A DNA stretch of 47,726 nucleotides. It comes from Vicinamibacteria bacterium (GTDB taxonomy: Bacteria > Acidobacteriota > Vicinamibacteria > Fen-336 > JAGNNV01). The stretch lies in contig JAGNNV010000004.1 of the NCBI GenBank assembly GCA_017990495.1, positions 3,003-50,728 of the forward strand. The letters run 5' to 3'. Below the pieces are notes generated by a model, which was given only the letters and a program-made list of their open reading frames with translations, did not search any database and was not told the DNA's origin. Shown here piece by piece: positions 5,324 through 43,514 of this stretch; the stretch's first letter is position 1; each line of letters opens with the position of its first letter. Made by a program: the position numbers and the translations under genes.

Positions 5324-6819
<1,496 letters not shown>

Positions 6820-11162: not shown

Positions 11163-13228
<2,066 letters not shown>

Positions 13229-20950: not shown

Positions 20951-21334
20951 ATGAACCGAACCGCCATCGCCCTCACCCTCGCATTGACCACCATCGCCGC
21001 CACCACACCCGCCGACGCGGGCGTGCGCATCGGAGTCCAGTTCGGCAACGACCGCGGCCGCTACGATGAACGCGGGCGCTACGGCGCGGGCCGCATCGCT
21101 TTCGACAACGGCTATCGCGACGGTCTGCGAGAAGGCGAGAAGGACGACCGAAGCGATGATCGCTACAACTATCGCGACGAGCGTCGCTATCGCGAGGCCG
21201 ACGCGGGTTATCGACGCGGCTACGGTTCGCGCTTCGAATACGCGGCTTCGTACCGCCGCGGTTTTGAAGAGGGCTACAGGCGCGGTTACTCGAACCGTCG
21301 TCACGACGATCGCGGTCGCGGCTATCGGCGTTAA
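20951..21334 (+). CDS. Secreted Arg/Tyr/Gly/Asp-rich low-complexity protein (Sec signal peptide)
   Basis: Signal peptide MNRTAIALTLALTTIAATTPADA. GGAG RBS. The mature part is built from GYRxG / YRRGY-type motifs. Confidence 0.7.
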   Translation: MNRTAIALTLALTTIAATTPADAGVRIGVQFGNDRGRYDERGRYGAGRIAFDNGYRDGLREGEKDDRSDDRYNYRDERRYREADAGYRRGYGSRFEYAASYRRGFEEGYRRGYSNRRHDDRGRGYRR

Positions 21335-21349
21335 GGATCTCGAGGACAC

Positions 21350-21694
21350 ATGAACCGTTCGCGCTTGTACGCAGCGCTCGTGATCGGGCTGGCCGTTTTC
21401 GGGGCCGCGTGTTCCACTTCACGCCCGCCTCGGGATCGGCCCGCCCCTTACGGTGTCTCTGCGTTCGACGAAGGCCTGACGCGCGGCCTCATGGCCGGAG
21501 CCTGGGCCGCTCACCGCGATCTCGGCAAGCCGGCCCGACGCAGTTTCTGGAACGACGCCCAGTATCGACGAGCCACCGAAGGGTATCGAACCCATTACGG
21601 CTCGAAGGCCGCGTACGCGGACGGTTTCCGCGCGGGGTACGAACGGGGCTACCGCGAGCGTCGACTGAAGGAACGGAATCGGCGCCGACGCTGA
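21350..21694 (+). CDS. Lipoprotein paralog of the preceding Arg/Tyr-rich protein
   Basis: Lipobox VFGAAC. Shares AFDxGxxxGL and YRxAxxGYRxxYGSxxxYAxGFxxGYxRGY blocks with 20951..21334. Confidence 0.7.
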   Translation: MNRSRLYAALVIGLAVFGAACSTSRPPRDRPAPYGVSAFDEGLTRGLMAGAWAAHRDLGKPARRSFWNDAQYRRATEGYRTHYGSKAAYADGFRAGYERGYRERRLKERNRRRR

Positions 21695-21733: not shown

Positions 21734-23146
21734 ATGGCGATTGGGCCTTCGATACTTCGCATCGGGGTGGTAGATCCCGTCGGCGCCATCGACCCTCGCA
21801 ACATGGCCGAGGCCACCACCATCCTCCTCGCGCGTCAGGTCTTCGAAACGCCCTTCCAGGCCTCGTCGACCGGCGACGCCATCCCCGCGCTCTTCAGCGA
21901 GAAGCTCGTCGAAACCCCGGGCAGCGGTGGTTTGAAATTCTCCACCACCGTGCGCACCGATGCGCGCTTCAGCGACGGGTCGCCCGTGACTCCGGAAGAC
22001 GTGGTGGGAGCGCTGGCTCAGGATCCCGTCTTCACCGGGCGCGCCACCGCCTCTTACCGCGATGGCCGTGTGCACCTCACTCTCTTCGCGCCCAACACCC
22101 GCTTCGATCTCTTCCTGACCATGTGCGGCATGCTCTATCGCCAGAACGGCAGCATCCTCCTCGGATCGGGCCCCTTCATGATGGGCACCTCCGATCGCGA
22201 CGTGGTGCGCCTGGTGCGCAACCCCCACGCACGAACGGTCTCGAAGATCGAATCGATTGAAGTCAGGCAGTATCCGGTAGACGCTCAGACCGGACGACCG
22301 ACCGCCCTGCTCGCCGCCCTCGAGAAAGGTGAGGTCGACCTGGCTCCGCGACTCTCCTGGCGTGACGTCAATCTGCTCAAGAGCACCGCGGTGGTGATGA
22401 AGCCGGTGAACTCCACGTGCATGCTCTACATCAACACCGAGCGGCTCAAGGACGTCCGCCTTCGCGGCGCTCTGGCCAAGGCCGTGGACCGAACCGTGGT
22501 GGCTGAACTCGCCTTCGGAGAGAACCCTCTGGCCTTCCGCGCCACCGGACTTCTGCCGCCAGCGCTGGGCAAAACCAACGATCGTCTGGTGCCCGACCTC
22601 GAACGGGCGCGCACCGAGTGGCAGGAGGCGGGCGGCTACGACAAGCCCATGACCATCCTCTACTCTCCCGCGCCCAGGCCCTACCTTCCCGCACCCGCGG
22701 CGGTGGGCAAACACCTCCGTGACCGCTTCAAACGACTCGGCGCCAACGTGGAGGCGGTGGAGGTCTCGTCGGGCGAGCTGATTCAGAAGGTGAACTCAGG
22801 GGACTACGACCTCGCTCTCATGGGCAACATCCCGGACAGCCCTGATCCAAGCGACTATCTGTCCGCGGTGGTGGGATCGGACGCGGTGCCTCAAGGCGTC
22901 GAAGGCGCGTCGTTCGCGTTCAACTTCTCGCGTTACCGGAGCCGCGAAGTCGACGATCTCATCGCCAACTACCGCAAGGAACGCCGTGAGGAAACCCTGG
23001 GCGAAATCGGTCTGCTGCTTGGCCGCGATGTTCCCCTGGTGCCCCTCATGTACGGTCGCGCGTGTGTGGCCCACGCCTGGCGGCTCCGCGGCTTCCAGCC
23101 CACGGTCACCGGCCTCGTCGACATCTCAGCTCTCAACCTGACCTGA
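21734..23146 (+). CDS. Family-5 (peptide/nickel, DppA/NikA-type) solute-binding protein homolog without signal peptide
   Basis: Overall SBP_bac_5-like sequence (FSDGSPVTPEDVV, INTERLKDVRLRGALAKAVDR). An in-frame TAG at 21722-21724 prevents any N-terminal extension. No adjacent permease or ATPase genes. Confidence 0.7.
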   Translation: MAIGPSILRIGVVDPVGAIDPRNMAEATTILLARQVFETPFQASSTGDAIPALFSEKLVETPGSGGLKFSTTVRTDARFSDGSPVTPEDVVGALAQDPVFTGRATASYRDGRVHLTLFAPNTRFDLFLTMCGMLYRQNGSILLGSGPFMMGTSDRDVVRLVRNPHARTVSKIESIEVRQYPVDAQTGRPTALLAALEKGEVDLAPRLSWRDVNLLKSTAVVMKPVNSTCMLYINTERLKDVRLRGALAKAVDRTVVAELAFGENPLAFRATGLLPPALGKTNDRLVPDLERARTEWQEAGGYDKPMTILYSPAPRPYLPAPAAVGKHLRDRFKRLGANVEAVEVSSGELIQKVNSGDYDLALMGNIPDSPDPSDYLSAVVGSDAVPQGVEGASFAFNFSRYRSREVDDLIANYRKERREETLGEIGLLLGRDVPLVPLMYGRACVAHAWRLRGFQPTVTGLVDISALNLT

Positions 23147-23201
23147 AGTGTGAGCCGCTAGCTTCGCGGCGCGGTTGAGCAGATAGTTCCGCTCCGGGAG
23201 G
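23118..23201. repeat. Direct repeat copy A (about 84 bp) flanking the ADOP gene
   Basis: Covers the last codons plus stop of the SBP gene and a fossil copy of the sigma-factor 3' end. It pairs with 25786-25870. The first 29 nt are identical, the central ~16-17 nt have diverged with a 1-nt indel, and the last 39 nt carry 2 mismatches. Confidence 0.85.
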
Positions 23202-23202
23202 G

Positions 23203-25719
23203 TCAGTCGGCTCGCAAGGCGACCACCGGGCTCACGCTGGTCGCCCGGCGCGCCGGCAGCCACGCCGCGCCCAGGCTCGCGCCAAGCAGGAGAAGCGGGG
23301 CGATGACGAATGTCGCCGCGTCGAACGCCCCGACGTCGACGAACAGGCTGTCCATCAGCCGTCCCATGCCGACGCCGAAGACGAGGCCCAGCGCGACGCC
23401 GCCTCCGCCGAGGGCCAGCCCTTCCCCGATCACCATTCGTCTTACGCCCGCCGGACTCGCGCCGATAGCGAGACGAATTCCGAACTCACGCGTCCTTCGA
23501 GCCACCGCGTAAGACATCGAGCCGTAGATCCCGACTACCGCGATCATTGTCGCGAAGAGCCCGAGGGTCAGGAAGAGCGTCGAGCTCACGCGTAACAACC
23601 AGAACTCGAGCGACCCCGCCACATGCTGCGCGAACGTCACGGCCTTGAAAGCAGGCAGGCCGGGTGCTATCGCCCGCACCTCGTTCTGCACCGCCTCGAC
23701 CAGGTGCGTAAGGGCTCCCGCCGAGTGCCCGCGAACCTGGAAGAAAGCGTCGCCGCGGAAACCCTGAGCGAAGGGCACGTAAACCCCATTCGTCTCCCCT
23801 TTATCGAAAGCATCGTCGCGGGTGGCCGAGACGATTCCGACGATCTCCGCCGGACCGGTCTCGACCGGCTTCGAACCCGTGGCCTGAAACTCGATCGATC
23901 GCCCAAGCGGCTCGCCGTCTGGGAAAAGGCGCCTCGAAAGCGCCTCGTTGATGACCACCACGCGTCGATTCCCGGAATGCCGGGCTTCCGCGTCCGTGAA
24001 CCCGCGCCCGCGCAACACCTTCATGCCCATGGTGCCGAAGTACGACGCGCTGACCGCATTCCAACGCGCGCCGAGGGCCTCGACTTCCGGGCGTGAAGAG
24101 GTCGCGCGCACGTACCGCCCCTCGTTCATTGTATGAAACGGCACGAAGGCCGCGAGACTCGCCGATTGTGCTCCGGGAATCGCTTTCAGTCGATCCTCGA
24201 TCACGCCATAAAGCGCCAGGGCCTCGGGCTCCTGGAGCCCCGCGAGCCCCGCGTCGACCTCGATCATCACGGTCTGCGTGGCGTCGTATCCAAGATCCGC
24301 GGTGTTCGCCTGCCGCGCCATCTGCACGAACAGGCCCGCGGAAATGAGCAGACTCAGGGAAAGGGCGATCTGGCCCGACACGAGCGGATTCCGCGGAAGG
24401 AAGCGCGAACGCCGGGGCGGCGCCTCGTCGCCGGCCTGCTGCTTGAGATCCGTCAGCACGCTCGCTCCCGAGTGTCGAAGCGCCGGCCCAAACGCGAACA
24501 TCAGCGTCGCCATCACGGAGAACACCGCCGTCCCGACGACCATCGCGGGAGGCGTGCCGAACTCGAGGGCAAGCGAGAAGGGCAGACGATCGAGCAGCGT
24601 AGCGGCGAGGCCGTTTACCGCATACATCCCAAGCGCCGCGCCCACCGCCCCACCCACCACAGAGAGAATCAGCCCCTCGGTGACGAACTGCCGCACGATC
24701 CGCGCCCGACCACCGCCCAGGGCGAGCCGGATCGCGAACTCGCGCCGTCGCGACTGGCCGCGAGCCAGGAACAGCGAGGCCAGGTTCAGGCAAACGATCA
24801 GCAGTACGGATCCCGTCATACCGAGCATCGCGAAGGCCAGCGTCATCACCGCACCCTCCTGGGGTGGGGCGTTGCTCAGAACCATCCGAGGCGCCGGGCG
24901 CGCGAAGAAGTCGGCGCCGCGATACTCGACGGGAAACCTTCGCTCCACCTCCGCGGCGGCCAGGCTCAGGGCCGGACCGGCTCCTTCCGGTGTGATCCCT
25001 TCCTTCAGGCGACCGATCAGCGTCAGGGTGAATCGATCGGGCCTCTCGAGCTCGCGCCTCGTGGACGGTTCCGCTCGATTCTCGATGGAATCAAGAACGC
25101 CGAGCGGCAGGAAGATTTCCGGCCCGAGGAGCACGTTCGCCCCCATGAATCCCTTGGGCGTGATCCCGACAATGGTGAAGGGCCGGCCGTTGACGCGGAC
25201 ACTTCGCCCGACAAGATCAGGGTCCAGGCCCGCCCGTTTCCACAGGCCGTAGGAGGCGATCGCCACGGGCGCCTCCGCACCCGGCATCGTCTCCTCCTCG
25301 GTGAAGGCCCGACCGTGAGCGAGGGAGGTGCCCAGCACCTTGAAGTAGTTGGCGCTGACGAGGGCCGAAACGGTTCGCCGCGGCGTGCCCCCTTGTGCGA
25401 GATGGTCGACGCCGACGACCTGAACCTTCTGCGCGAGCACGCCGTCGAACGCATCGTCGCGGGCAGAGAGCGATTGCCACGCACCGAGGGAGAACGGGCG
25501 GAATGAGTCCGGCTCGTTGCGCGAGTGCGAGTAGATCTGCACCAGGGCCTCGGGCTGGGCGACCGGGAGCTTCGCAAAGACCATCGAGTACGAGAGGCCG
25601 AACATCGCGGCGTTGAGTCCGATGCTCAAAGCCAGAACCAGGACCGCCGACGCCGTGAACCCCGGCGTCTTCCGGAGCTGGCGCAGCGACACCTTCACAT
25701 CGTTGAGTATTCCCCTCAT
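23203..25719 (-). CDS. ADOP-family duplicated FtsX/MacB-like ABC transporter permease
   Basis: The N-terminus (LRQLRKTPGFTASAVLVLALSIGLNAAMF) and two FtsX-type 4-TM modules separated by large periplasmic domains fit the Acidobacterial duplicated orphan permease family. No adjacent ATPase. Confidence 0.85.
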   Translation of the reverse strand: MRGILNDVKVSLRQLRKTPGFTASAVLVLALSIGLNAAMFGLSYSMVFAKLPVAQPEALVQIYSHSRNEPDSFRPFSLGAWQSLSARDDAFDGVLAQKVQVVGVDHLAQGGTPRRTVSALVSANYFKVLGTSLAHGRAFTEEETMPGAEAPVAIASYGLWKRAGLDPDLVGRSVRVNGRPFTIVGITPKGFMGANVLLGPEIFLPLGVLDSIENRAEPSTRRELERPDRFTLTLIGRLKEGITPEGAGPALSLAAAEVERRFPVEYRGADFFARPAPRMVLSNAPPQEGAVMTLAFAMLGMTGSVLLIVCLNLASLFLARGQSRRREFAIRLALGGGRARIVRQFVTEGLILSVVGGAVGAALGMYAVNGLAATLLDRLPFSLALEFGTPPAMVVGTAVFSVMATLMFAFGPALRHSGASVLTDLKQQAGDEAPPRRSRFLPRNPLVSGQIALSLSLLISAGLFVQMARQANTADLGYDATQTVMIEVDAGLAGLQEPEALALYGVIEDRLKAIPGAQSASLAAFVPFHTMNEGRYVRATSSRPEVEALGARWNAVSASYFGTMGMKVLRGRGFTDAEARHSGNRRVVVINEALSRRLFPDGEPLGRSIEFQATGSKPVETGPAEIVGIVSATRDDAFDKGETNGVYVPFAQGFRGDAFFQVRGHSAGALTHLVEAVQNEVRAIAPGLPAFKAVTFAQHVAGSLEFWLLRVSSTLFLTLGLFATMIAVVGIYGSMSYAVARRTREFGIRLAIGASPAGVRRMVIGEGLALGGGGVALGLVFGVGMGRLMDSLFVDVGAFDAATFVIAPLLLLGASLGAAWLPARRATSVSPVVALRAD

Positions 25720-25740
25720 GACGATCAGGACGAGGGCGGC

Positions 25741-25758
25741 TCCGGGAAAGTTCCCGGA
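25741..25758 (-). promoter_or_regulatory. 18-bp palindrome TCCGGGAA-AG-TTCCCGGA upstream of the ADOP start
   Basis: Perfect 8-bp arms, 22-39 nt upstream of the ADOP ATG (25719). Candidate operator. Confidence 0.35.
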
Positions 25759-25785
25759 AGGAGGTCCCCAGTGAAGGAGGTCCCC
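25757..25785. repeat. Tandem 13-bp direct repeat GAAGGAGGTCCCC x2, 16-nt period
   Basis: Identical copies at 25757-25769 and 25773-25785, inside the 66-nt cassette-specific leader of the ADOP gene. Confidence 0.8.
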
Positions 25786-25870
25786 TCGACATCTCAGCTC
25801 TCAACCTGACCTGAGCTTCGAGTCCGCGAGTTTCGCGGCGCGGGTGAGCAGATAGTTGCGCTCCGGGAGG
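25786..25870. repeat. Direct repeat copy B flanking the ADOP gene
   Basis: Contains a fossil of the SBP gene's last codons plus TGA (..LDISALNLT*) and the functional 3' end of the sigma-factor gene. Confidence 0.85.
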
Positions 25871-27072
25871 CTCGCGGTTTTGCCGGCGGCGGCGCGGTAG
25901 TGCCCGATGGCTTTGGCCGGATCGCCGGCCCTTTCGTACAGGTGTCCCCGAACCGCGTCCAAGCGGTGGTGGCCGGAAAGGCCCCCATCACCATCGAGCG
26001 CTTCCAGAAGCCGCAGTCCCTCGCGAGGGCCGTGCACCATGGCCGCGGCGATGGCGTGGTTGAGGGCGATCATGGGGTTATCCGACATCCGTTTGAGCAG
26101 ACCGTACAGCGCGAGAATCTGAGGCCAGTCGGTGTCCTCAGGACGAGCCGCTTCATCGTGCACGGCGGCGATGGCGGCCTGGATCTGATAGAGGCCCACC
26201 GTCCCCAAGGCCAGGGCTCCGGTAATGAGGCGCACGCCTTCGTCGATGAGCGTCTTGTCCCACAAACCTCGGTCCTGTTCCTCGAGCGGAATGATCTCGC
26301 CGCTCGCTCCGGTGCGAGCGCGGCGCCGGGCATCGGTGAGCAGCATGAGCGCCAGCAGTCCCTTGACTTCCGGGTCTTGCGGGATCAGTTGATGAACCGC
26401 CCGGGTCAGCCGGATGGCCTCGTGAGCGAGTTCGACACGCTGTAAGTCGGGACCGACGCTGCTCGCGTAACCCTCATTGAAGATCAGGTAGAGCACATGG
26501 AGCACGGCGCCCAGCCGCTGCGCGCGTTCGGCTTCAGTGGGCTGGGCGAAGGAGGCCCCCGCGGTTTTGATGCTTTGTTTCGCCCGGCTGATCCGCTGGG
26601 CCATGGTTGCTTCCGGAACCATGAAGGCGTGGGCGATCTGGGCCGTGGTCAAACCGCCCACCGCGCGCAAGGTGAGCGCGATGGCGGAGGGCGTGCTCAA
26701 CGTCTGATGGCAACACATAAAGAGCAGGAGCAGTGTGTCTTCGCGCTCGACCTGCGCGGGGGCATCAATGGATGGCGACCACGATTCGTCGGACGCGGAC
26801 AACGTGAAGACCCGGCCCTCGCGACGGCGGCGAGCGATCTCGCTCCGCACATGGTCGGTGAAACGCCGCGTGGCCACCTGGATCAGCCACCCTCCGGGGT
26901 TTTCGGGGAGGCCTTGTTCGGGCCACTGAAGGGCGGCGGCGAGAAGTGCTTCCTGCACCGCGTCTTCGGCGGAAGCAAAGTCGCCGAACCGACGGACCAG
27001 AGTCCCAAGCACCTGCGGCGCGAGTTCACGCAGCAGGTGCTCGGTCGCCGCGTCGAGCCGCGCCGCCGTCAC
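25801..27072 (-). CDS. ECF-type sigma-70 factor with ~230-aa C-terminal (TPR-like) extension
   Basis: Sigma-2 region EDAVQEALLAAALQWPE..GWLIQVATRRFTDHVR. Sigma-4 region LTLRAVGGLTTAQIAHAFMVPEATMAQRISRAKQSI. Long helical C-terminal domain. The GTG start overlaps the YCII gene stop (GTGA). Confidence 0.8.
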   Translation of the reverse strand: MTAARLDAATEHLLRELAPQVLGTLVRRFGDFASAEDAVQEALLAAALQWPEQGLPENPGGWLIQVATRRFTDHVRSEIARRRREGRVFTLSASDESWSPSIDAPAQVEREDTLLLLFMCCHQTLSTPSAIALTLRAVGGLTTAQIAHAFMVPEATMAQRISRAKQSIKTAGASFAQPTEAERAQRLGAVLHVLYLIFNEGYASSVGPDLQRVELAHEAIRLTRAVHQLIPQDPEVKGLLALMLLTDARRRARTGASGEIIPLEEQDRGLWDKTLIDEGVRLITGALALGTVGLYQIQAAIAAVHDEAARPEDTDWPQILALYGLLKRMSDNPMIALNHAIAAAMVHGPREGLRLLEALDGDGGLSGHHRLDAVRGHLYERAGDPAKAIGHYRAAAGKTASLPERNYLLTRAAKLADSKLRSG

Positions 27073-27467
27073 TCCGTGGGAGGCGGGCCGCTCATGACCT
27101 GGCGCACTTCGATGGCCATGTTGAGGGGCGCGCCGCCCCGTCCGGGCGCCGCCGAGGCCCTCGCCGCGATTTCATACGCGCGTTCGGTGGTGGGCACGTC
27201 GACGATCCAGTAGCCGGCCAGGAACTCCTTGCCCTCAGCGTAGGGGCCATCGGTGACCGCGGGAGCGCCTGCTTTGCCGGCGCGCACGATCCTTGCCTCA
27301 TTGGGACCGGCCAGACCCTCGGCCGCCGCCAGCTCGCCGTTCTTCCCGAGTTCCTGGCTGAAGGCGATCATGAAGTCGATATGGGCCTTGATGTCCTGGG
27401 GCGGCCAGTTCTGGATCGCCCACTCGCCGGCCGTCCGCGGAGCGTGCATCATGAGCATGTATTTCAT
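27069..27467 (-). CDS. YCII-related (YciI/DGPF) domain protein
   Basis: MKYMLMMH.. N-terminus and the DGPYAEGKEFLAGYWIVDV motif are characteristic of YCII-like proteins. Confidence 0.8.
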   Translation of the reverse strand: MKYMLMMHAPRTAGEWAIQNWPPQDIKAHIDFMIAFSQELGKNGELAAAEGLAGPNEARIVRAGKAGAPAVTDGPYAEGKEFLAGYWIVDVPTTERAYEIAARASAAPGRGGAPLNMAIEVRQVMSGPPPTE

Positions 27468-27492
27468 TTCCCTGTCTGTCCTCTGGTTTTGG

Positions 27493-27514
27493 GAAGCGCC
27501 AGGATCGGCGCTTC
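27493..27514 (-). promoter_or_regulatory. Perfect 8-bp stem hairpin GAAGCGCC-aggatc-GGCGCTTC in the YCII/sigma leader
   Basis: Located 26-47 nt upstream of the YCII start codon (27467). Confidence 0.3.
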
Positions 27515-27668
27515 ATGGGTCAGTCGAAGCCGCGGCCGGTTTCTCGACATGCCTTGGCGGATCTTAGGGAAAAGTGGTCGGTGAAGGCCGAAGGGGGCAT
27601 TTGGTGCCCAACGGGGCCGGGCGTATTGTTGCCGGACGCAGGTCTTGGCCACAAGGAGGGCGAAACCC

Positions 27669-28121
27669 TTGAAGCAACTGAAAGCGATGTTCCTCATTCC
27701 CCTGTTGGCGGCGGGTTGCGGTTCGTCACCGGCCGCGCCGAGCGCCACCACGCCCGTGCCCGCGGGGGCGCCGCGAGTCGGCCTGAGCATGGGCCTCCTG
27801 GTGTCGCCGTCCGGAGCCTCTGGCTTTACCGCACCTACGTCCCTGACTCTCCAGATCCAGTCGCGCGGCACACCCGTGCACGTGGAGACGGTGAGCTACC
27901 GAATGCTGGACGCGCGGGGGCAAGTGCTGGTCGAGGCGTTCATCGACACCGCTACCGCCGGGAATTCCGACCCGAGCCGGTACGTAAGCGGAGGCACGAT
28001 CGTCCAGACTCTTTCCTGGCCGGCGGAGCGCGGCACGGGTGCAAGGATCGATGTCATCCTGACCTATCGCGACACGGCGGGCGTCCTCAGCACCCACTCG
28101 TTCTCGGTTCCCGCTCAGTAA
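27669..28121 (+). CDS. Hypothetical lipoprotein
   Basis: AAGGAGG at 27653-27659 precedes TTG 27669, giving MKQLKAMFLIPLLAAGC with a lipobox. The alternative start is ATG 27687. The mature part is beta-rich with no motif I recognise. Confidence 0.6.
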   Translation: MKQLKAMFLIPLLAAGCGSSPAAPSATTPVPAGAPRVGLSMGLLVSPSGASGFTAPTSLTLQIQSRGTPVHVETVSYRMLDARGQVLVEAFIDTATAGNSDPSRYVSGGTIVQTLSWPAERGTGARIDVILTYRDTAGVLSTHSFSVPAQ

Positions 28122-28195
28122 ACCGGACCTCCTTGCCTGTGCGCCGCGTGTTGCCGCGACACGCGAAGTCCAGACCCGGCTGCTAGCCTCCCGGC

Positions 28196-30232
28196 ATGAA
28201 GCCGCCGGTTGCCCGCCCCATTCCCCGAACCACCGTTTTGCACGGGGAGACCCTCGAGGATCCCTACTTCTGGCTGCGGGAAAAAGAGAATCCTGAGGTC
28301 CGCACGTACCTCGAGGCGGAGAACGCCTACGCCGACGCAGTGACGGCGCCTCTCGCCGAACTAAGCGCATCGCTCTACGACGAGATGCTGGCGCGGATTC
28401 AGGAGGATGACACCAGCGCGCCCTATCTCTTCCGCGGGTTCTTGCACCGCGTGCGGACGGAGAAAGGCCGCCAGTATCCGATTCACGAGCGTCGGCGCCA
28501 GGACGCTCCGGCCTACGCTCCGTTCGAGACCGTGCTCGACGTCAACGATCTCGCCGCGGGGCGGTCGTTCATGTCCCTGGGCGCGTGCCTGATGAGCGAC
28601 GATGGCGCGCTCCTCGCGTATTCCACCGACGACACCGGCTTCCGCCAATACCGTCTGCAGGTCAAGAATCTCGTCACCGGCGAGTTGTGGAATCGCTCGT
28701 TCGAGAAGACGATCTCCGTGGCCTGGGCCGCGGACTCCCGCACCCTCTTCTTCACCGAGGAGGACCATGCGAAACGCGCGGCGAAGCTTTACCGGGTGGA
28801 AGCCTTCACCGATGCGGAGCCCGAACTCGTTTTCGCCGAGCCGGACGAGCGATTCAATCTCGAGATCTTCCGCTCCCGCAGCGCGAAGATCCTGTTCCTC
28901 GTCACCTCCTCCCACACCACCGCGGAGTTCCACTGGAACCGAGCTGACGCACCGCGCGAGCCCTTCCGGCTGATCGCACCGCGGCATCAGGATCACGAAT
29001 ACGAGGTCGACCACCAGGGCGACCGCTTCCTCATCCGCACCAACGACCGCGGTCGCAATTTCCGGCTGGTGGAAGCGAATGTGGAGTCGCCGGATCAGAC
29101 GAACTGGCGGGAGATCGTGGCTCATCGCGATGACGTGATGCTCGAAGGGGTCCTCGCATTCGAAGACGCGGTGGTGCTGGCCGAGCGCTCGGGCGGCCTG
29201 CCCCGATTCCGGTCGCTCACGCGGGGCATCTCCGCCGGCGTGGCCGCGGCCTTCGAAGAGCCCACGTACACGGCGTTCCCCCACGACAATCGCGAGTACG
29301 CGACCACTTCCTTCCGCTACTCGTACCAGTCTCTGGTGACTCCGCCTTCGATCTTCGAGCTCGACCTGCGGACGGGGCAGAGCACGCTCATCAAGCAGAC
29401 CGCGGTGCTCGGCACGTTCGATCGAAACGACTACGTGTCGGAATGGATCTCCGCCACCGCTCAGGACGGCACCGTGATCCCTATCTCCCTGGTGCGTCGT
29501 CGCGACACACCCAAGGACGGCACGGCCCCCATGCACCTTTTGGGCTACGGCTCGTACGGTTATCCCTACCCGGTGTCCTTCGTCTCGCACCGGCTGTCGC
29601 TGCTCGATCGGGGTTTCGTCATCGCCCTCGCCCACATTCGCGGCGGCGGCGAGCTGGGCAAACCATGGCACGACGCCGGACGCATGGGCACGAAGATGAA
29701 CACCTTCACCGACTTCATCGCCTGCGCGACCCATCTCATCGATGCGGGCTACACCTCGAGCACACGTCTCGTCATCGAAGGCGGTTCGGCGGGCGGCCTG
29801 CTGATGGGCGCGGTGATCAACCTCCGCCCCGACCTCATGAAAGCGGTGATCGCCAAGGTGCCCTTCGTCGACGTGATCAACTCCATGCTCGACGAGGATC
29901 TACCCCTCACCGTGGCCGAGTTCGAGGAGTGGGGCAACCCCAAGCTCCTTCCCGACTACAAGGTGATGCGGGCCTATTGCCCCTACAGCAATCTCGAGCG
30001 GAAGGCCTATCCCGCGATCCTCCTGCGCAACTCGTTCAACGACTCGCAGGTGATGTACTGGGAGGCCGCCAAGTACGCGGCCCGGCTGCGCACACTCAAG
30101 ACCAACGACACGCCGCTGCTCCTCCGCACCCTGATGGACGCGGGCCACGGCGGAGCCTCCGGCCGCTACGACGCGCTGCGGGAAACCGCCTCGGACTACG
30201 CCTTCATTCTGTGGCAGGTGGGCGCGATCTGA
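28196..30232 (+). CDS. ptrB: Oligopeptidase B (protease II), S9A prolyl oligopeptidase family
   Basis: N-terminal HGETLEDPYFWLREKENPEVRTYLEAENAY. Catalytic Ser context GGSAGGLLMG. C-terminal DAGHGG. Confidence 0.88.
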   Translation: MKPPVARPIPRTTVLHGETLEDPYFWLREKENPEVRTYLEAENAYADAVTAPLAELSASLYDEMLARIQEDDTSAPYLFRGFLHRVRTEKGRQYPIHERRRQDAPAYAPFETVLDVNDLAAGRSFMSLGACLMSDDGALLAYSTDDTGFRQYRLQVKNLVTGELWNRSFEKTISVAWAADSRTLFFTEEDHAKRAAKLYRVEAFTDAEPELVFAEPDERFNLEIFRSRSAKILFLVTSSHTTAEFHWNRADAPREPFRLIAPRHQDHEYEVDHQGDRFLIRTNDRGRNFRLVEANVESPDQTNWREIVAHRDDVMLEGVLAFEDAVVLAERSGGLPRFRSLTRGISAGVAAAFEEPTYTAFPHDNREYATTSFRYSYQSLVTPPSIFELDLRTGQSTLIKQTAVLGTFDRNDYVSEWISATAQDGTVIPISLVRRRDTPKDGTAPMHLLGYGSYGYPYPVSFVSHRLSLLDRGFVIALAHIRGGGELGKPWHDAGRMGTKMNTFTDFIACATHLIDAGYTSSTRLVIEGGSAGGLLMGAVINLRPDLMKAVIAKVPFVDVINSMLDEDLPLTVAEFEEWGNPKLLPDYKVMRAYCPYSNLERKAYPAILLRNSFNDSQVMYWEAAKYAARLRTLKTNDTPLLLRTLMDAGHGGASGRYDALRETASDYAFILWQVGAI

Positions 30233-30247
30233 GCCGTTCAAGAGGAT
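30199..30247. repeat. Direct repeat copy A (about 47 bp): functional 3' end of ptrB plus 15 nt
   Basis: The 35-nt core TTCTGTGGCAGGTGGGCGCGATCTGAGCCGTTCAA has 1 mismatch to 32092-32126. The flanks align with a 3-nt indel. Confidence 0.85.
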
Positions 30248-30578
30248 CCGCACCCGCGCTCTTCGACTTCTGCGATACGGAACGCGTTTCGCTCCTTCTA
30301 CGGAGCGCTGCCTGTTTCCGGGAAGAACAAGATCGCGAATCGACGTGGCGGCATCCACCTGGTCCCGCTTCATCTCGGCCGCTCGGTGGGTACGGACCTT
30401 GTCCAGACGCTGTTCGCATCGCCGAAGGCAATCAGCACTTCGCCAGCGAGCTTTGAGTCGGGCATGATATTTGACTCCGCACGATGTGCTGGTAGTTTGC
30501 GCTGGTGAACGTGCATGGGCAGCGGGTGGCAATGATCGAAAGTGGCCGGTCCAAGTGTCGGACCGCGCGGTGGTCGGC
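30248..30578. other. About 330 nt with no convincing ORF (possible decayed gene or divergent promoter region) at the left end of the inserted segment
   Basis: Only short, frame-broken minus-strand ORFs are present, for example MPDSKLAGEVLIAFGDANSVW.. from 30464. GC looks lower around 30450-30520. Confidence 0.4.
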
Positions 30579-31382
30579 ATGAACACCCCGCCACGATCCG
30601 CAGCGATCGTCACCGGCGGTGGTCGCGGCATTGGCAAGGCGATCGCAACGAGACTCGCAGGTGCACAGGCGGTCGTGGTGGTGGGCCGAACGGAAGCGGA
30701 TCTGCGGCAGGTGTGTGCCGAAATCGCCGCAATGGGCGGAATGGCGGTGCCCTGCGCAGGCGATGTCGCCGACCCGACCACTGCCATTTCCGCACTGTCC
30801 CTCCTGCGCGCCCAGGGCTGGTCGCTGGGGCACCTGGTCTGCAACGCCGGGATCGGCAAGAGTGGTGCCACCGAGTCCCTGGACAGCGGCGCCTGGACGC
30901 GGGTGTTCGAGGTCAATGTGCACGGTTGTTTCCACATGGTGCGCGCTTGCTTGCCGGAGCTGATGGTTCAGCCGGGCGCGGCGATCACCATCATGAGCAG
31001 TCTGGCGGGCGTGCGCGGTGTCGCCTTCGATGCGGCCTATACCGCGAGCAAGCATGCGCTGGTCGGCTTCGCACGCGCACTGGCACTGGAATACCGCAAG
31101 CATGGGCCGTCGGTGGCCGCGCTGTGTCCCGGATTTGTCGAAAGCGAAATGACCCAGCGAACGATCCGCGGCGTGATGCGGCGGCAGGGGCTCGACGAAG
31201 CGCAGGCCCGTCAGCGCATCGCCGGCCGCAGTCTCGCGGGGCGCATTCTGGCGGCGGAGGAAATCGCCGAGGCCGTGGCGCTGCTCGGCGCGCAGCAGTT
31301 CGCTGCCGCCCGAGCACTGGCCGAACGCGGTGGCTATCCGATGGTCGGCAGCCCCGAACTTCAGTCCGAGGACCTTCCATGA
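30579..31382 (+). CDS. Short-chain dehydrogenase/reductase (SDR)
   Basis: AAIVTGGGRGIGKAI cofactor motif, NAGIG, and a YTASKHAL catalytic Tyr-x3-Lys. ATG 30579 chosen within track ORF 30471..31382. Confidence 0.85.
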   Translation: MNTPPRSAAIVTGGGRGIGKAIATRLAGAQAVVVVGRTEADLRQVCAEIAAMGGMAVPCAGDVADPTTAISALSLLRAQGWSLGHLVCNAGIGKSGATESLDSGAWTRVFEVNVHGCFHMVRACLPELMVQPGAAITIMSSLAGVRGVAFDAAYTASKHALVGFARALALEYRKHGPSVAALCPGFVESEMTQRTIRGVMRRQGLDEAQARQRIAGRSLAGRILAAEEIAEAVALLGAQQFAAARALAERGGYPMVGSPELQSEDLP

Positions 31383-32065
31383 GTGCGTTGGACGCCCGCC
31401 TGCAGGTGATCATCGACTGGATTCGCGAGCGCACCGATGTCGAGGCCGGACGCGGTGCGCTGGTCCCCGTCAGTGGCGGCTCGGACAGTGCCCTGGGTTT
31501 CTGGCTATGTGCGCAGGCGCTGCCGCCGGGTCGCGCCATCGGCGCCTTCGTGGGCAGCGGGTTGCGTTGTCGTGGATGGTTCGAGCAATTCGGCCCGGTT
31601 CGGCTGCTGCCCGAACCGCTGGTCTCAAGCCACATCGAGACCACGCGCTGGGCCATGATGTTGTCCCTGTCCCTGGACGTGCGTGGCTGGCTGGTCGGCA
31701 CCCGCAACCGCACCGAAGATGTCTTTGGCACCTACAGCCTGGCCAGTCGCGTCGCCACCCTGTTGCCACTGGTCGGGTTGTGGAAGAGCGAAGTAATGGA
31801 ACTTGCGCTGGGCGTAGGCGTGCCCGCAGAAATCCTGGAGTCCAGTCAACGCGCCGATCCCAGTTGTGGCCGGCCGCAGGCGATGGCTGATATCCCGTTT
31901 GAGACGATCGACCGGTTCCTGCAGGTTCGATTGGGTGAACGCGCCGAGTCCGATCTCGACGCCATTGCGCCGGCGACCGTCGAATATCTGGAGTCGGTTT
32001 ATCGGCGCAATCGGTTCAAACAGGCATTGCCGTTGTCTGCACCGGGATCGGCCCGCCGCAGCTAA
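31379..32065 (+). CDS. PP-loop ATP pyrophosphatase, short NadE (NH3-dependent NAD+ synthetase)-like
   Basis: SGGSDS PP-loop in ALVPVSGGSDSALGF. GTRNRTEDVFGTYS and PLVGLWKSEVMELA blocks resemble NadE. ATGA overlap with the SDR stop. Only ~228 aa. Confidence 0.65.
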   Translation: MSALDARLQVIIDWIRERTDVEAGRGALVPVSGGSDSALGFWLCAQALPPGRAIGAFVGSGLRCRGWFEQFGPVRLLPEPLVSSHIETTRWAMMLSLSLDVRGWLVGTRNRTEDVFGTYSLASRVATLLPLVGLWKSEVMELALGVGVPAEILESSQRADPSCGRPQAMADIPFETIDRFLQVRLGERAESDLDAIAPATVEYLESVYRRNRFKQALPLSAPGSARRS

Positions 32066-32086
32066 CCCGCGCACGGCGACAGCGTG

Positions 32087-32132
32087 CGCCTTTCTGTGGC
32101 AGGTGGGCGCGGTCTGAGCCGTTCAAAAGAAT
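32087..32132. repeat. Direct repeat copy B: fossil ptrB 3' end (..AFLWQVGAV*)
   Basis: Retains a reading frame and TGA equivalent to the ptrB terminus. Lies 22 nt after the NadE-like stop. Confidence 0.85.
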
Positions 32133-42728: not shown

Positions 42729-43514
42729 ATGAGACCCACCGCCACCGCCACCATCTCTTTCGGAATGGTCTCCATTCCGGTCAAGCTCTTCTCCGCCACC
42801 GAGAGCAAGGCCTCGATCTCCTTCAACATGCTGCACGAGAAGTGCAAGGGTCGGGTGAAGCAGCAGTACATCTGCGAGCGCGACAACAATGAAGTGGTCC
42901 CGCGCACCGAGATGGTGAAGGGCTACGAATTCGCCAAGGACCAGTACGTCGTCTTCACCCCGGACGAGATCAAGAAGATGGAGGAGGAGAAAACCGGCCT
43001 CGTCGACATCGCGGAGTTCCTCGACATCAATCTGGTCGACCCCGTGTACTACGAGGGCGCCTCGTACCTCGCTCCCGACAAGGGCGGCGAGAAAGCCTAC
43101 CGACTTTTGTGCGACGCCATGAAGAAGACCGGCCGGGTTGCGGTGGCGCGCTGGGCGGCCCGGGGCAAGCAGTACCTGGTGCTTTTGCGCCCGCTCAAGA
43201 ACGTGATCATCCTCCAGCAACTGCGGTACCCCGACGAAGTACGCGCGCTCGATGAGGTTCCGGTGGGCACGGCCGAGTCCAAGGAGAACGAACTCAAGCT
43301 CGCGGTCCAGCTCATCGATCAGATCACCTCTCCCGCCTTCGAACCCGCGCAGTACGAGGACGAGGTGCGGAAACGCATGCAGGCCGCGATCGATCGGAAG
43401 ATCCAGGGCCAGGAGATCGCGAGCGCCCCCGAACAGCCGCGCGCCCAGATCATCGACATCATGGAGGCCCTGAAGGCATCCCTGGCCGCCCGGAAGGGCG
43501 ACCTCGTCAGCTAG
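42729..43514 (+). CDS. ku: Ku protein (non-homologous end joining)
   Basis: ISFGMVSIPVKLFSAT and VKGYEFAKDQYVVFTPDEI are hallmark bacterial Ku segments. Confidence 0.9.
   Translation: MRPTATATISFGMVSIPVKLFSATESKASISFNMLHEKCKGRVKQQYICERDNNEVVPRTEMVKGYEFAKDQYVVFTPDEIKKMEEEKTGLVDIAEFLDINLVDPVYYEGASYLAPDKGGEKAYRLLCDAMKKTGRVAVARWAARGKQYLVLLRPLKNVIILQQLRYPDEVRALDEVPVGTAESKENELKLAVQLIDQITSPAFEPAQYEDEVRKRMQAAIDRKIQGQEIASAPEQPRAQIIDIMEALKASLAARKGDLVS

Follow-up and report, generated by a model that had tools for sequence, protein, structure and literature searches.

ADOP-family permeases (TIGR03434) are highly multiplied in Acidobacteriota. We analyse a stretch of 47,726 nucleotides (nt) from contig JAGNNV010000004.1 of a Vicinamibacteria bacterium from soil, referred to here as the window, in which an ADOP gene sits between two convergent genes and is bounded on both sides by a direct repeat built from the 3' ends of those two genes. 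The make-up of this repeat, its distribution among related strains, and a second repeat-bounded insertion in the same window point to an insertion that duplicated its target.

On the left lies the gene for a family-5 solute-binding protein (SBP) of 470 amino acids (aa), at 21734-23146 on the plus strand (Pfam SBP_bac_5, E 4e-34); its last 29 nt open the left copy of the repeat, and its orthologues occur at 54-100% identity in Vicinamibacteria metagenome-assembled genomes (MAGs). Two small paralogues of 127 and 114 aa, about 31% identical and with no Pfam match, lie at 20951-21334 and 21350-21694 on the plus strand, and this pair is always upstream of the SBP gene in relatives. In the center is the ADOP-family duplicated permease gene (23203-25719, minus strand; 838 aa). 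Its product scores 672.8 bits against TIGR03434 (cutoff 622.3), matches profile positions 2-803 of 803, and carries the internal duplication of the family as two MacB_PCD and two FtsX modules; it is a bona fide member. The gene is an orphan: its neighbors are the SBP and sigma genes and not an ABC ATPase gene, and no ABC ATPase domain was found among the open reading frames scanned across the window or the called genes of overlapping loci. On the right, on the minus strand, are an ECF42-like sigma factor gene (25801-27072; 423 aa; Pfam Sigma70_r2, Sigma70_r4_2, and a DUF6596 C-terminal extension at residues 186-286) and its operon partner, a YCII-family gene (27069-27467; Pfam YCII) that overlaps it upstream. 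The YCII-sigma pair is kept in all related loci. The ECF42 group of sigma factors is described in PMC8999054; its features, sigma-70 regions 2 and 4, a long TPR-like C-terminal extension, and a YCII/DGPF-type neighbor, are all present here, and the label "ECF42-like" refers to these.

Two copies of the SBP/sigma junction, J, bound the ADOP gene. The left copy, J_L (23118-23204), consists of the live SBP tail (23118-23146, stop codon TGA at 23144-23146), a hypervariable spacer (23147-23162), and a fossil of the sigma gene (23163-23204) that is read on the minus strand and corresponds to its last 14 or so codons. The right copy, J_R (25786-25873), holds a fossil SBP tail (25786-25814), a spacer (25815-25831), and the live sigma tail (25832-25873). 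The two SBP tails are identical (29/29 nt), the centers have diverged (16 nt on the left and 17 nt on the right, with a 1-nt indel), and the following 39 nt (23163-23201 vs 25832-25870) differ at two positions. An earlier note on this DNA had described an 84-bp direct repeat at 23118-23201 and 25786-25870, and every detail of it is confirmed; with one further mismatch the alignment extends to 23204/25873, giving 88 nt at 88.6% identity. In a self-BLAST of the whole window this pair is the stronger of only two repeats (E 7e-25), the other being 41 nt at 30207/32092. The same note placed the ADOP stop codon 1 nt from the left repeat, as drawn to 23201, and a 66-nt leader before the right one; both placements hold.

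In content, the repeat equals the last 29 nt of the SBP gene plus the last 24 or so codons of the sigma gene. Each part is native to its gene. The SBP tail of the window, LVDISALNLT followed by the stop, agrees with the orthologue consensus, LVDLSALTLT and stop, in all orthologues at 54-89% identity, and the 29 nt are thus native to SBP. Likewise, PERNYLxTxAARL is present in all of about 60 sigma homologues, with a tail variable in length and sequence behind it, which assigns the right-hand part to sigma. Since the repeat is a composite of the two native tails, as the earlier note had recognized, the convergent SBP/sigma junction pre-dated the arrival of the ADOP gene. A sequence such as J requires SBP and sigma genes that stood tail to tail, their ends overlapping. 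In the window the sigma stop codon sits within the SBP-tail fossil of J_R, such that the sigma reading frame overlaps that fossil by 14 nt and the last four sigma codons and the stop are now encoded by part of it.

The non-functional halves of J_L and J_R behave as fossils. Translated on the minus strand, J_L reads LPERNYLLNRAAKLAAHTSGQVES and then a stop, a frame-shifted relic of the sigma C-terminus, which ends in LPERNYLLTRAAKLADSKLRSG and a stop; in strains L001 and L008 (L-numbers are labels of retrieved loci and contigs) this sigma fossil has lost 25 nt. The sigma part of the left copy is thus a genuine relic, in agreement with the earlier description. Across an eight-copy alignment the spacer sequence differs in every junction copy examined. 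The right-copy allele of L047 keeps the frame of the left fossil, ending in AAKLAAHGSDQAEC and a stop with a 21-nt overlap, and on this evidence the 1-nt indel is a later change in the right copy of the window. Gene conversion is not needed for the 29/29 identity of the SBP tails: the 29 nt of the right copy are the same in both lineages that carry the arrangement, and left copies vary at synonymous sites only. No terminator and no sigma-70 promoter consensus was found in the repeat or the leader.

The arrangement is widespread in its lineage. Twenty-two contigs, taken from ENA, NCBI, JGI, and Logan assemblies, code for the identical SBP protein. Among the 10 of these that are listed, all contigs reaching past the SBP stop codon carry the permease gene, and those that are long enough carry both junction copies. 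Both copies lie on single contigs from different samples in L001, L002, L006, L007, L009, and L057, and the same layout recurs in at least eight independent assemblies, which differ in sample and assembler and include a 1.24-Mb JGI contig (L057). It is also present, with both copies and the same boundaries, in a sister lineage, that of CXWL01001536 (L011 and L048-L050; L011 and L048 are this 198-kb groundwater contig), which is 92-93% identical to the window uniformly through the SBP, ADOP, sigma, and prolyl oligopeptidase genes. An assembly artefact, in which collapsed or misjoined reads created the repeat, would draw on the general risk of metagenome assembly and on the fact that one MAG breaks its contigs inside the locus (L003, L047). 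With so many independent assemblies in agreement, and with the copies diverged and bearing lineage-specific substitutions in each, its probability is negligible, and the repeat described earlier can be taken as real. J_L and J_R differ by 11%. Because both lineages share both copies with the same boundaries, the duplication is older than the lineage split, and the divergence between the copies fits this age. The arrangement has been passed on vertically since.

Between the junction copies lies what appears to be a self-contained expression unit, a promoter region and the ADOP reading frame. The nearest ADOP genes at unrelated loci are those of L029 (87% aa identity), L030 (73%), and L031 (68%); DNA homology to other-locus genes takes in the reading frame plus as much as about 38 nt before it (to about 25757), and it ends at the stop codon. 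At the DNA level the closest ADOP gene outside the locus is 82.5% identical (17.5% divergent) and lacks J. Within the 66-nt leader (25720-25785, minus strand), which came in with the ADOP gene, a GGAAC-N17-CGTC motif lies at 25729-25754 on the minus strand, with GGAAC beginning 35 nt before the ADOP ATG. Among the 11 ADOP genes for which upstream sequence is available, GGAAC begins at exactly -35 in 7 (in 6 of 10 when the window gene and its CXWL orthologue are treated as one), and the full motif lies within 120 nt upstream in 9, against a background of 0.055 matches per kb per strand. A conserved CGTCaTTCcCGTC ATG follows the motif in ADOP genes, and the motif also occurs at L029, L030, L031, L051, L052, and L053. 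It looks like an ECF-type promoter that would give a nearly leaderless ADOP transcript; no description of it was found in the literature searched. Between the window and the sister lineage the ratio of nonsynonymous to synonymous substitution rates (dN/dS) of the ADOP gene is 0.16, with 0.04-0.10 for its neighbors, values that indicate purifying selection on the ADOP gene between the two lineages.

The two ends of this unit look like illegitimate joins, judging by their sequences. At the leader junction, beside J_R, the 13-nt unit GGGGACCTCCTTC at 25757-25769 is repeated at 25773-25785. The sister lineage shares this tandem duplication, which therefore dates from the original junction; the 13-mer was also considered as a dispersed repeat and is not one. 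At the junction next to the ADOP stop codon, microhomology amounts to at most 1-2 nt. ADOP genes are often packed against a convergent neighbor with 0-13 nt between the ends, as at the left junction of the window: in L053-L056 the ADOP stop falls at 12517 and a convergent peptidase M24 gene begins at 12518, and the corresponding positions are 12511/12514 in L031 and 7442/7456 in L030.

Within the window lineage the ADOP gene is being lost piecemeal, independently in strains of one species. L001 carries three 1-nt deletions in the gene (window positions 24214, 24299, and 25140). In L057 (11200-11330) a 526-bp deletion of window 25298-25823 fuses the sigma tail to ADOP codon 142 or thereabouts. 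In L032 (4640-5020) two ADOP fragments are all that is left, codons 464-502 and 786-837, fused to the sigma tail; beyond this remnant is DNA with a weak match to an IS91-type transposase (Y2_Tnp, E 0.005). The L032 fusion recurs in cluster members P0329 and P0335, together on at least eight further contigs. The deletions of L057 and L032 give the sigma factor new C-terminal tails. None of these losses, whether by frameshift or by deletion of 0.5-1.4 kb, ran through the repeats.

Strains of the lineage also bear signs of exchange. Differences between the window and L001, which are about 99% identical, bunch in three patches (22975-23550, 24178-24364, and 26305-26763), and the patch at 24178-24364 matches the L032 ADOP remnant at 97.6%. 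Such a mosaic is typical of frequent homologous recombination within a population. Between the window and the sister lineage, raised divergence beside the repeats, as a donor tract would leave, was not seen.

Relatives give a view of the locus before the ADOP gene. A profile of SBP was run on metagenome contigs from JGI, which gave 18 loci, and on GTDB genomes, which gave 14, and exact-protein look-ups were made for SBP, sigma, and the members of their 90% clusters; an empty site would run from the SBP tail and spacer past CCGGGAGG into CTCGCGGTTTTGCC. In the 10 listed of the 22 identical-SBP contigs, in L011 (97% SBP identity), and in L057, the permease gene or its start lies downstream of SBP. 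Of the other 31 SBP-anchored loci, most are more distant or uninformative; those that extend downstream have the prolyl oligopeptidase (POP) gene or unrelated content there and never sigma or ADOP. In the window the POP gene (28196-30232) runs in the same direction as SBP. The same SBP-to-POP order and direction is found in 14 loci that reach POP (SBP orthologues at 78-89% identity), all without ADOP or sigma; in 10 of these 14 the SBP/POP gap measures 30-2750 nt and a second S9 peptidase gene (S9b) lies beyond POP, and in L014, L016, L034, and L035 the gap is 563-1090 nt. Because these 14 relatives have neither unit in the gap, the sigma block and the ADOP gene were gained stepwise, and the window lineage would have acquired the YCII-sigma block beside SBP first and the ADOP gene second. 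The SBP/POP gap (window 23147-28195 compared with L012, L019, and L033-L045), 5 kb long here, is an insertion hotspot across Vicinamibacteria; its content is unrelated between relatives, and the POP/S9b gap behaves alike. No flanking repeats were found around the relatives' own SBP/POP gap inserts.

The sister lineage holds more DNA between the junction copies than the window does. Its order is sigma, J_R, a block of 8.1 kb, promoter, ADOP, J_L, SBP, and the block (L048 11273-19678) falls between window positions 25761 and 25786. It encodes an MBOAT protein, a 322-aa protein, an acyl-AMP ligase with a carrier domain, a 277-aa protein, a JmjC protein, PqqD, and a PIN/Phd toxin-antitoxin pair, a gene set that may form a small biosynthetic or peptide-modification cluster. 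A long target duplication of its own was sought for the block; there is about 6 nt of similarity only, and a possible diverged copy of about 30 nt is unconvincing. The block would be either a later gain in the CXWL lineage or a later loss in the window lineage; no outgroup carries ADOP here.

These contigs raise the possibility, which we hold tentatively and consider somewhat unlikely, that the original insert was a larger island: about 10.7 kb would have entered, as now seen in the sister lineage, and the window lineage would later have deleted 8.1 kb. Such a history is compatible with a target-duplicating insertion. Its breakpoint falls within the second GGGGACCTCCTTCC unit, where similarity extends over about 6 nt only, and could reflect a deletion as well as an insertion. 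Islands typically carry toxin-antitoxin pairs, and the PIN/Phd pair would belong here. On the other side, no outgroup with ADOP at the locus is available to polarize the change; the 13-nt tandem unit, whole in the window lineage and split in CXWL, makes insertion slightly more natural; and the ADOP promoter and gene are conserved as a unit at unrelated loci. The earlier statement that exactly one gene lies between the repeats is thus right for the window and uncertain for the original insert.

A second insertion with the same signature lies about 4 kb from the ADOP locus. Here the repeat, R2, is 41 nt long: the proximal copy, R2a (30207-30247), comprises the last 26 nt of the POP gene and 15 nt downstream, and the distal copy, R2b (32092-32132), differs from it at three positions. 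Between them, a non-ADOP block of 1.85 kb (30248-32091, plus strand) holds about 300 nt of upstream DNA, in which no mobile-element remnants were recognizable, followed by a short-chain dehydrogenase gene (30555-31382) and an NAD-synthase-family gene (31379-32065), both assigned by Pfam and both on the plus strand. In this case the empty site exists. In the CXWL lineage (L048 6700-6960, reverse strand) there is a single 41-nt copy and no insert, and this copy runs from the end of POP straight into the sequence that follows R2b in the window; more distant relatives, too, all lack the dehydrogenase/NAD-synthase block. R2a has all three derived differences, and R2b equals the sister lineage at those positions. 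R2 shares no sequence with J. Since its cargo and its length (41 vs 88 bp) are different, the signature is better ascribed to a host insertion process than to ADOP genes as such.

This bears on a further proposal of the earlier note, that the layout might record the way in which ADOP genes have spread. For ten other ADOP genes or gene pairs, drawn from seven contexts, the best flanking hits measure 8-14 nt (E 0.004 or weaker) and do not exceed chance; ADOP loci were also sought in viral contigs to enlarge this sample, with no hits. Moreover, the nearest ADOP gene elsewhere is distant in sequence, and R2 carries other cargo. The proposal is not borne out: the locus reveals no spreading mechanism specific to the ADOP family, and R2 with its empty site corrects the idea of such a route. 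None of the literature searched describes a mechanism of ADOP multiplication.

A recombinase-based origin can be judged from the same observations. No transposase or integrase domain is present in the main reading frames scanned across the window, as had been noted before, and of 20 inverted-repeat pairs within 22000-27000, none pairs the two ends of the insert. Transposons, insertion sequences, casposons, and CRISPR spacer integration also flank their inserts with duplicated target, but here neither a transposase nor Cas1 is encoded, terminal inverted repeats are lacking, and the duplication varies from 41 to 88 bp. As general background (see also PMC9939771), transposon duplications are fixed at 2-15 bp and casposon and CRISPR repeats measure about 14-37 bp. 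A related idea takes the repeats as attL and attR of a small element mobilized by an integrase in trans, similar to a cis-mobilizable element (CIME) or a dif module. The layout suits it, with direct repeats of tens of bases at gene 3' ends around recombinase-free cargo; yet the repeat consists of two host gene ends with no conserved att or dif core, the R2 repeat is unrelated in sequence, the repeat is absent at 10 other ADOP genes, no integrase is encoded in 47.7 kb, and the region has no significant secondary structure (fold z = -1.3). We consider this origin very improbable. Lacking the defining features of transposons, integron cassettes, and att-bounded elements, the scar is none of these.

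The earlier note favored a Campbell-type single crossover, in which a circle bearing the ADOP gene, its leader, and one 88-bp junction recombined with the chromosomal junction, leaving a cassette that the reverse reaction could excise. In such integration the direct repeats that bracket an insert equal the shared homology, and the event is reversible in principle. Crossover by RecA can proceed over 88 bp, and 41-88 bp is the low end for it; 88 bp would therefore have been enough here. The direct repeats of variable, non-transposon length, the lack of a recombinase gene, and the frequent recombination among strains of the lineage (the mosaic patches of L001, a lower synonymous divergence of ADOP) are also in its favor. 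The junction, however, is a chimera known from this locus only, and a donor circle would have to come from a locus that already had ADOP beside it; the crossover would account for spread and leave the origin unexplained. No donor circle or locus with the junction was found, the nearest ADOP gene elsewhere being without it, and no excision product or empty allele occurs in the contigs covering the SBP end (10 listed of 22, L011, L057, and the distant loci). The ADOP losses are unrelated deletions and frameshifts, with no allele in which SBP meets sigma through a single J among the contigs and loci searched, and excision by homologous recombination is not supported. Furthermore, the filler duplication at the leader junction requires an illegitimate join in any case, and the second insertion offers 41 bp of homology only. 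We regard Campbell-type integration as unlikely.

An about equally doubtful explanation invokes displacement, a two-step, homology-facilitated illegitimate recombination between haplotypes. In one strain ADOP would have replaced the body of sigma (or SBP) beside the junction; that DNA would then have entered a wild-type strain, with homology on one side and an illegitimate join upstream of the end of homology, and thereby duplicated the junction. For type VI secretion (T6SS) effector-immunity and Rhs loci, the mechanism has been put forward to account for arrays of duplicated gene 3' ends (PMC5361080). Those arrays, together with those of CdiA, resemble the present case in that 3' fragments of a resident gene bracket new cargo, at a recombination hotspot and without an integrase. 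They grow behind a single conserved toxin gene, with orphan immunity genes left over, whereas here two unrelated convergent genes are restored and no array is formed. Displacement agrees with a locus that is a hotspot of recombination and insertion with many haplotypes, and with the presence of all three derived differences in R2a, as expected of a donor-derived proximal copy. Against it, it takes two rare events and an intermediate haplotype with a disrupted sigma or SBP gene, a haplotype that was not seen, and the window and the sister lineage show no rise in divergence beside either repeat.

Displacement also fits better than simple target duplication to a third repeat, in L031, an unrelated acidobacterial contig. 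Two 95-nt direct copies (90.5% identity; 6583-6677 and 13091-13185) lie 6.5 kb apart. One copy forms codons 45-77, approximately, of a short-chain dehydrogenase gene that is itself intact; the other, a fossil, begins precisely at the stop codon that closes a HAD hydrolase gene. The pair brackets the HAD gene, two ADOP genes, and the 3' part of the dehydrogenase gene. Displacement and the remnant of a tandem duplication are candidates for its origin.

At the ADOP locus, tandem duplication followed by deletion was considered and rejected: it needs a second ADOP gene and leader downstream of sigma, and there is none in the 22 kb to the end of the window. In our judgment the locus is probably the scar of one ancient illegitimate insertion with a target duplication of about 88 bp at the SBP/sigma junction, and not a working mobile element. 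Such an insertion explains the composite repeat, the variable repeat lengths, the junction filler, the lack of recombinases, and the second case. The order of events and the enzymology are offered here as a reconstruction. In an ancestor, the operon of YCII and the ECF42-like sigma factor would have come to lie tail to tail with SBP, with the sigma frame running 14-21 nt into the SBP 3' end. An ADOP unit, made up of the GGAAC-N17-CGTC promoter region and the reading frame to 1 nt past its stop, would then have been inserted into this overlap, accompanied by duplication of about 88 bp of target. The left copy would have kept the SBP end and the right copy the sigma end, and each would from then on have carried a decaying fossil of the other gene's end. 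Selection may have kept the duplication, as an insertion without it would truncate a conserved C-terminus. Afterwards the arrangement would have passed vertically, with ADOP under purifying selection in some lineages and lost piecemeal in others.

The joining itself was presumably illegitimate and independent of recombinases. Its likeliest routes would be fill-in and end joining at a staggered double-strand break, or a replication template switch that copied the target a second time. The window encodes Ku for bacterial non-homologous end joining (42729-43514, plus strand; Pfam Ku, E 1.2e-50); this gene is not part of the scar, and it suggests that the organism has an end-joining pathway that could yield such insertions. 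Duplications made by Ku/LigD end joining, by fork stalling and template switching (FoSTeS), or by microhomology-mediated break-induced replication (MMBIR) resemble the present ones in several respects: an ectopic segment is flanked by a direct target duplication, the length of the duplication varies by event (41 and 88 bp here), the junctions have 0-2 nt of microhomology and short templated filler, and no enzyme is encoded by the element, with Ku supplied by the host. They differ in that the part duplicated here spans the overlapping ends of two convergent genes and was kept since both were rescued. The two insertions differ in duplication length and in cargo, which favors a host process whose stagger varies over a dedicated element. 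To our knowledge, long duplications around whole-gene insertions have rarely been documented in bacteria; a literature search on long bacterial target duplications returned nothing specific.

Several points weigh against this interpretation. A stagger of 88 nt is unusually long for break repair. The insert ends exactly at the ADOP stop codon, more precisely than random breakage predicts; this is less surprising given the tight 3' packing typical of ADOP genes (0-13 nt in L030, L031, and L053). The original insert may have been about 10.7 kb rather than one gene, in view of the extra 8.1 kb in the sister lineage. Synonymous divergence (dS) between the lineages is 0.17 for ADOP vs 0.23-0.36 for its neighbors, which leaves some room for a later recombinational exchange of the cassette between lineages. 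The L031 repeat, with two ADOP genes inside it, keeps an association with ADOP genes in play to a small degree. Finally, the earlier note had named an empty-site search in relatives and metagenomes as a test, and in the contigs and loci searched we found neither SBP converging directly on sigma nor a precise excision allele; the polarity of the insertion consequently rests on parsimony and the composite repeat.

Duplicative illegitimate insertion is a known kind of event, and this locus behaves like an unusually clear bacterial example of it. A complete expression unit was slotted into the overlapping ends of two convergent genes, and neither gene was damaged, by way of the duplicated overlap. 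The population data cover the gain of the unit, its retention under purifying selection, additional insertion at that position, and decay by frameshifts and deletions. If long target duplications turn out to be common in Acidobacteriota, they would serve as a marker of recent gene gain in uncultured soil bacteria and give a hint that end joining or template switching is active there. The constant spacing between the conserved GGAAC-N17-CGTC motif and ADOP start codons offers a testable lead on the regulation of a large orphan family. In addition, three such scars (J, R2, and the 95-nt repeat of L031) occur in about 0.5 Mb of largely redundant related sequence. A broader reading, speculative and in our estimation distinctly unlikely, is that Vicinamibacteria, perhaps Acidobacteriota as a whole, gain units of promoter and gene by a recombinase-independent duplicating pathway that leaves 40-95-bp copies of gene ends. 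Such a pathway might use a trans-acting enzyme that makes very long staggered cuts, or it might be an unusually active end-joining or template-switch route. If this were true, the three scars would be the first hint of a duplicating insertion pathway, and that pathway would be a possible main route for the multiplication of orphan families such as ADOP.

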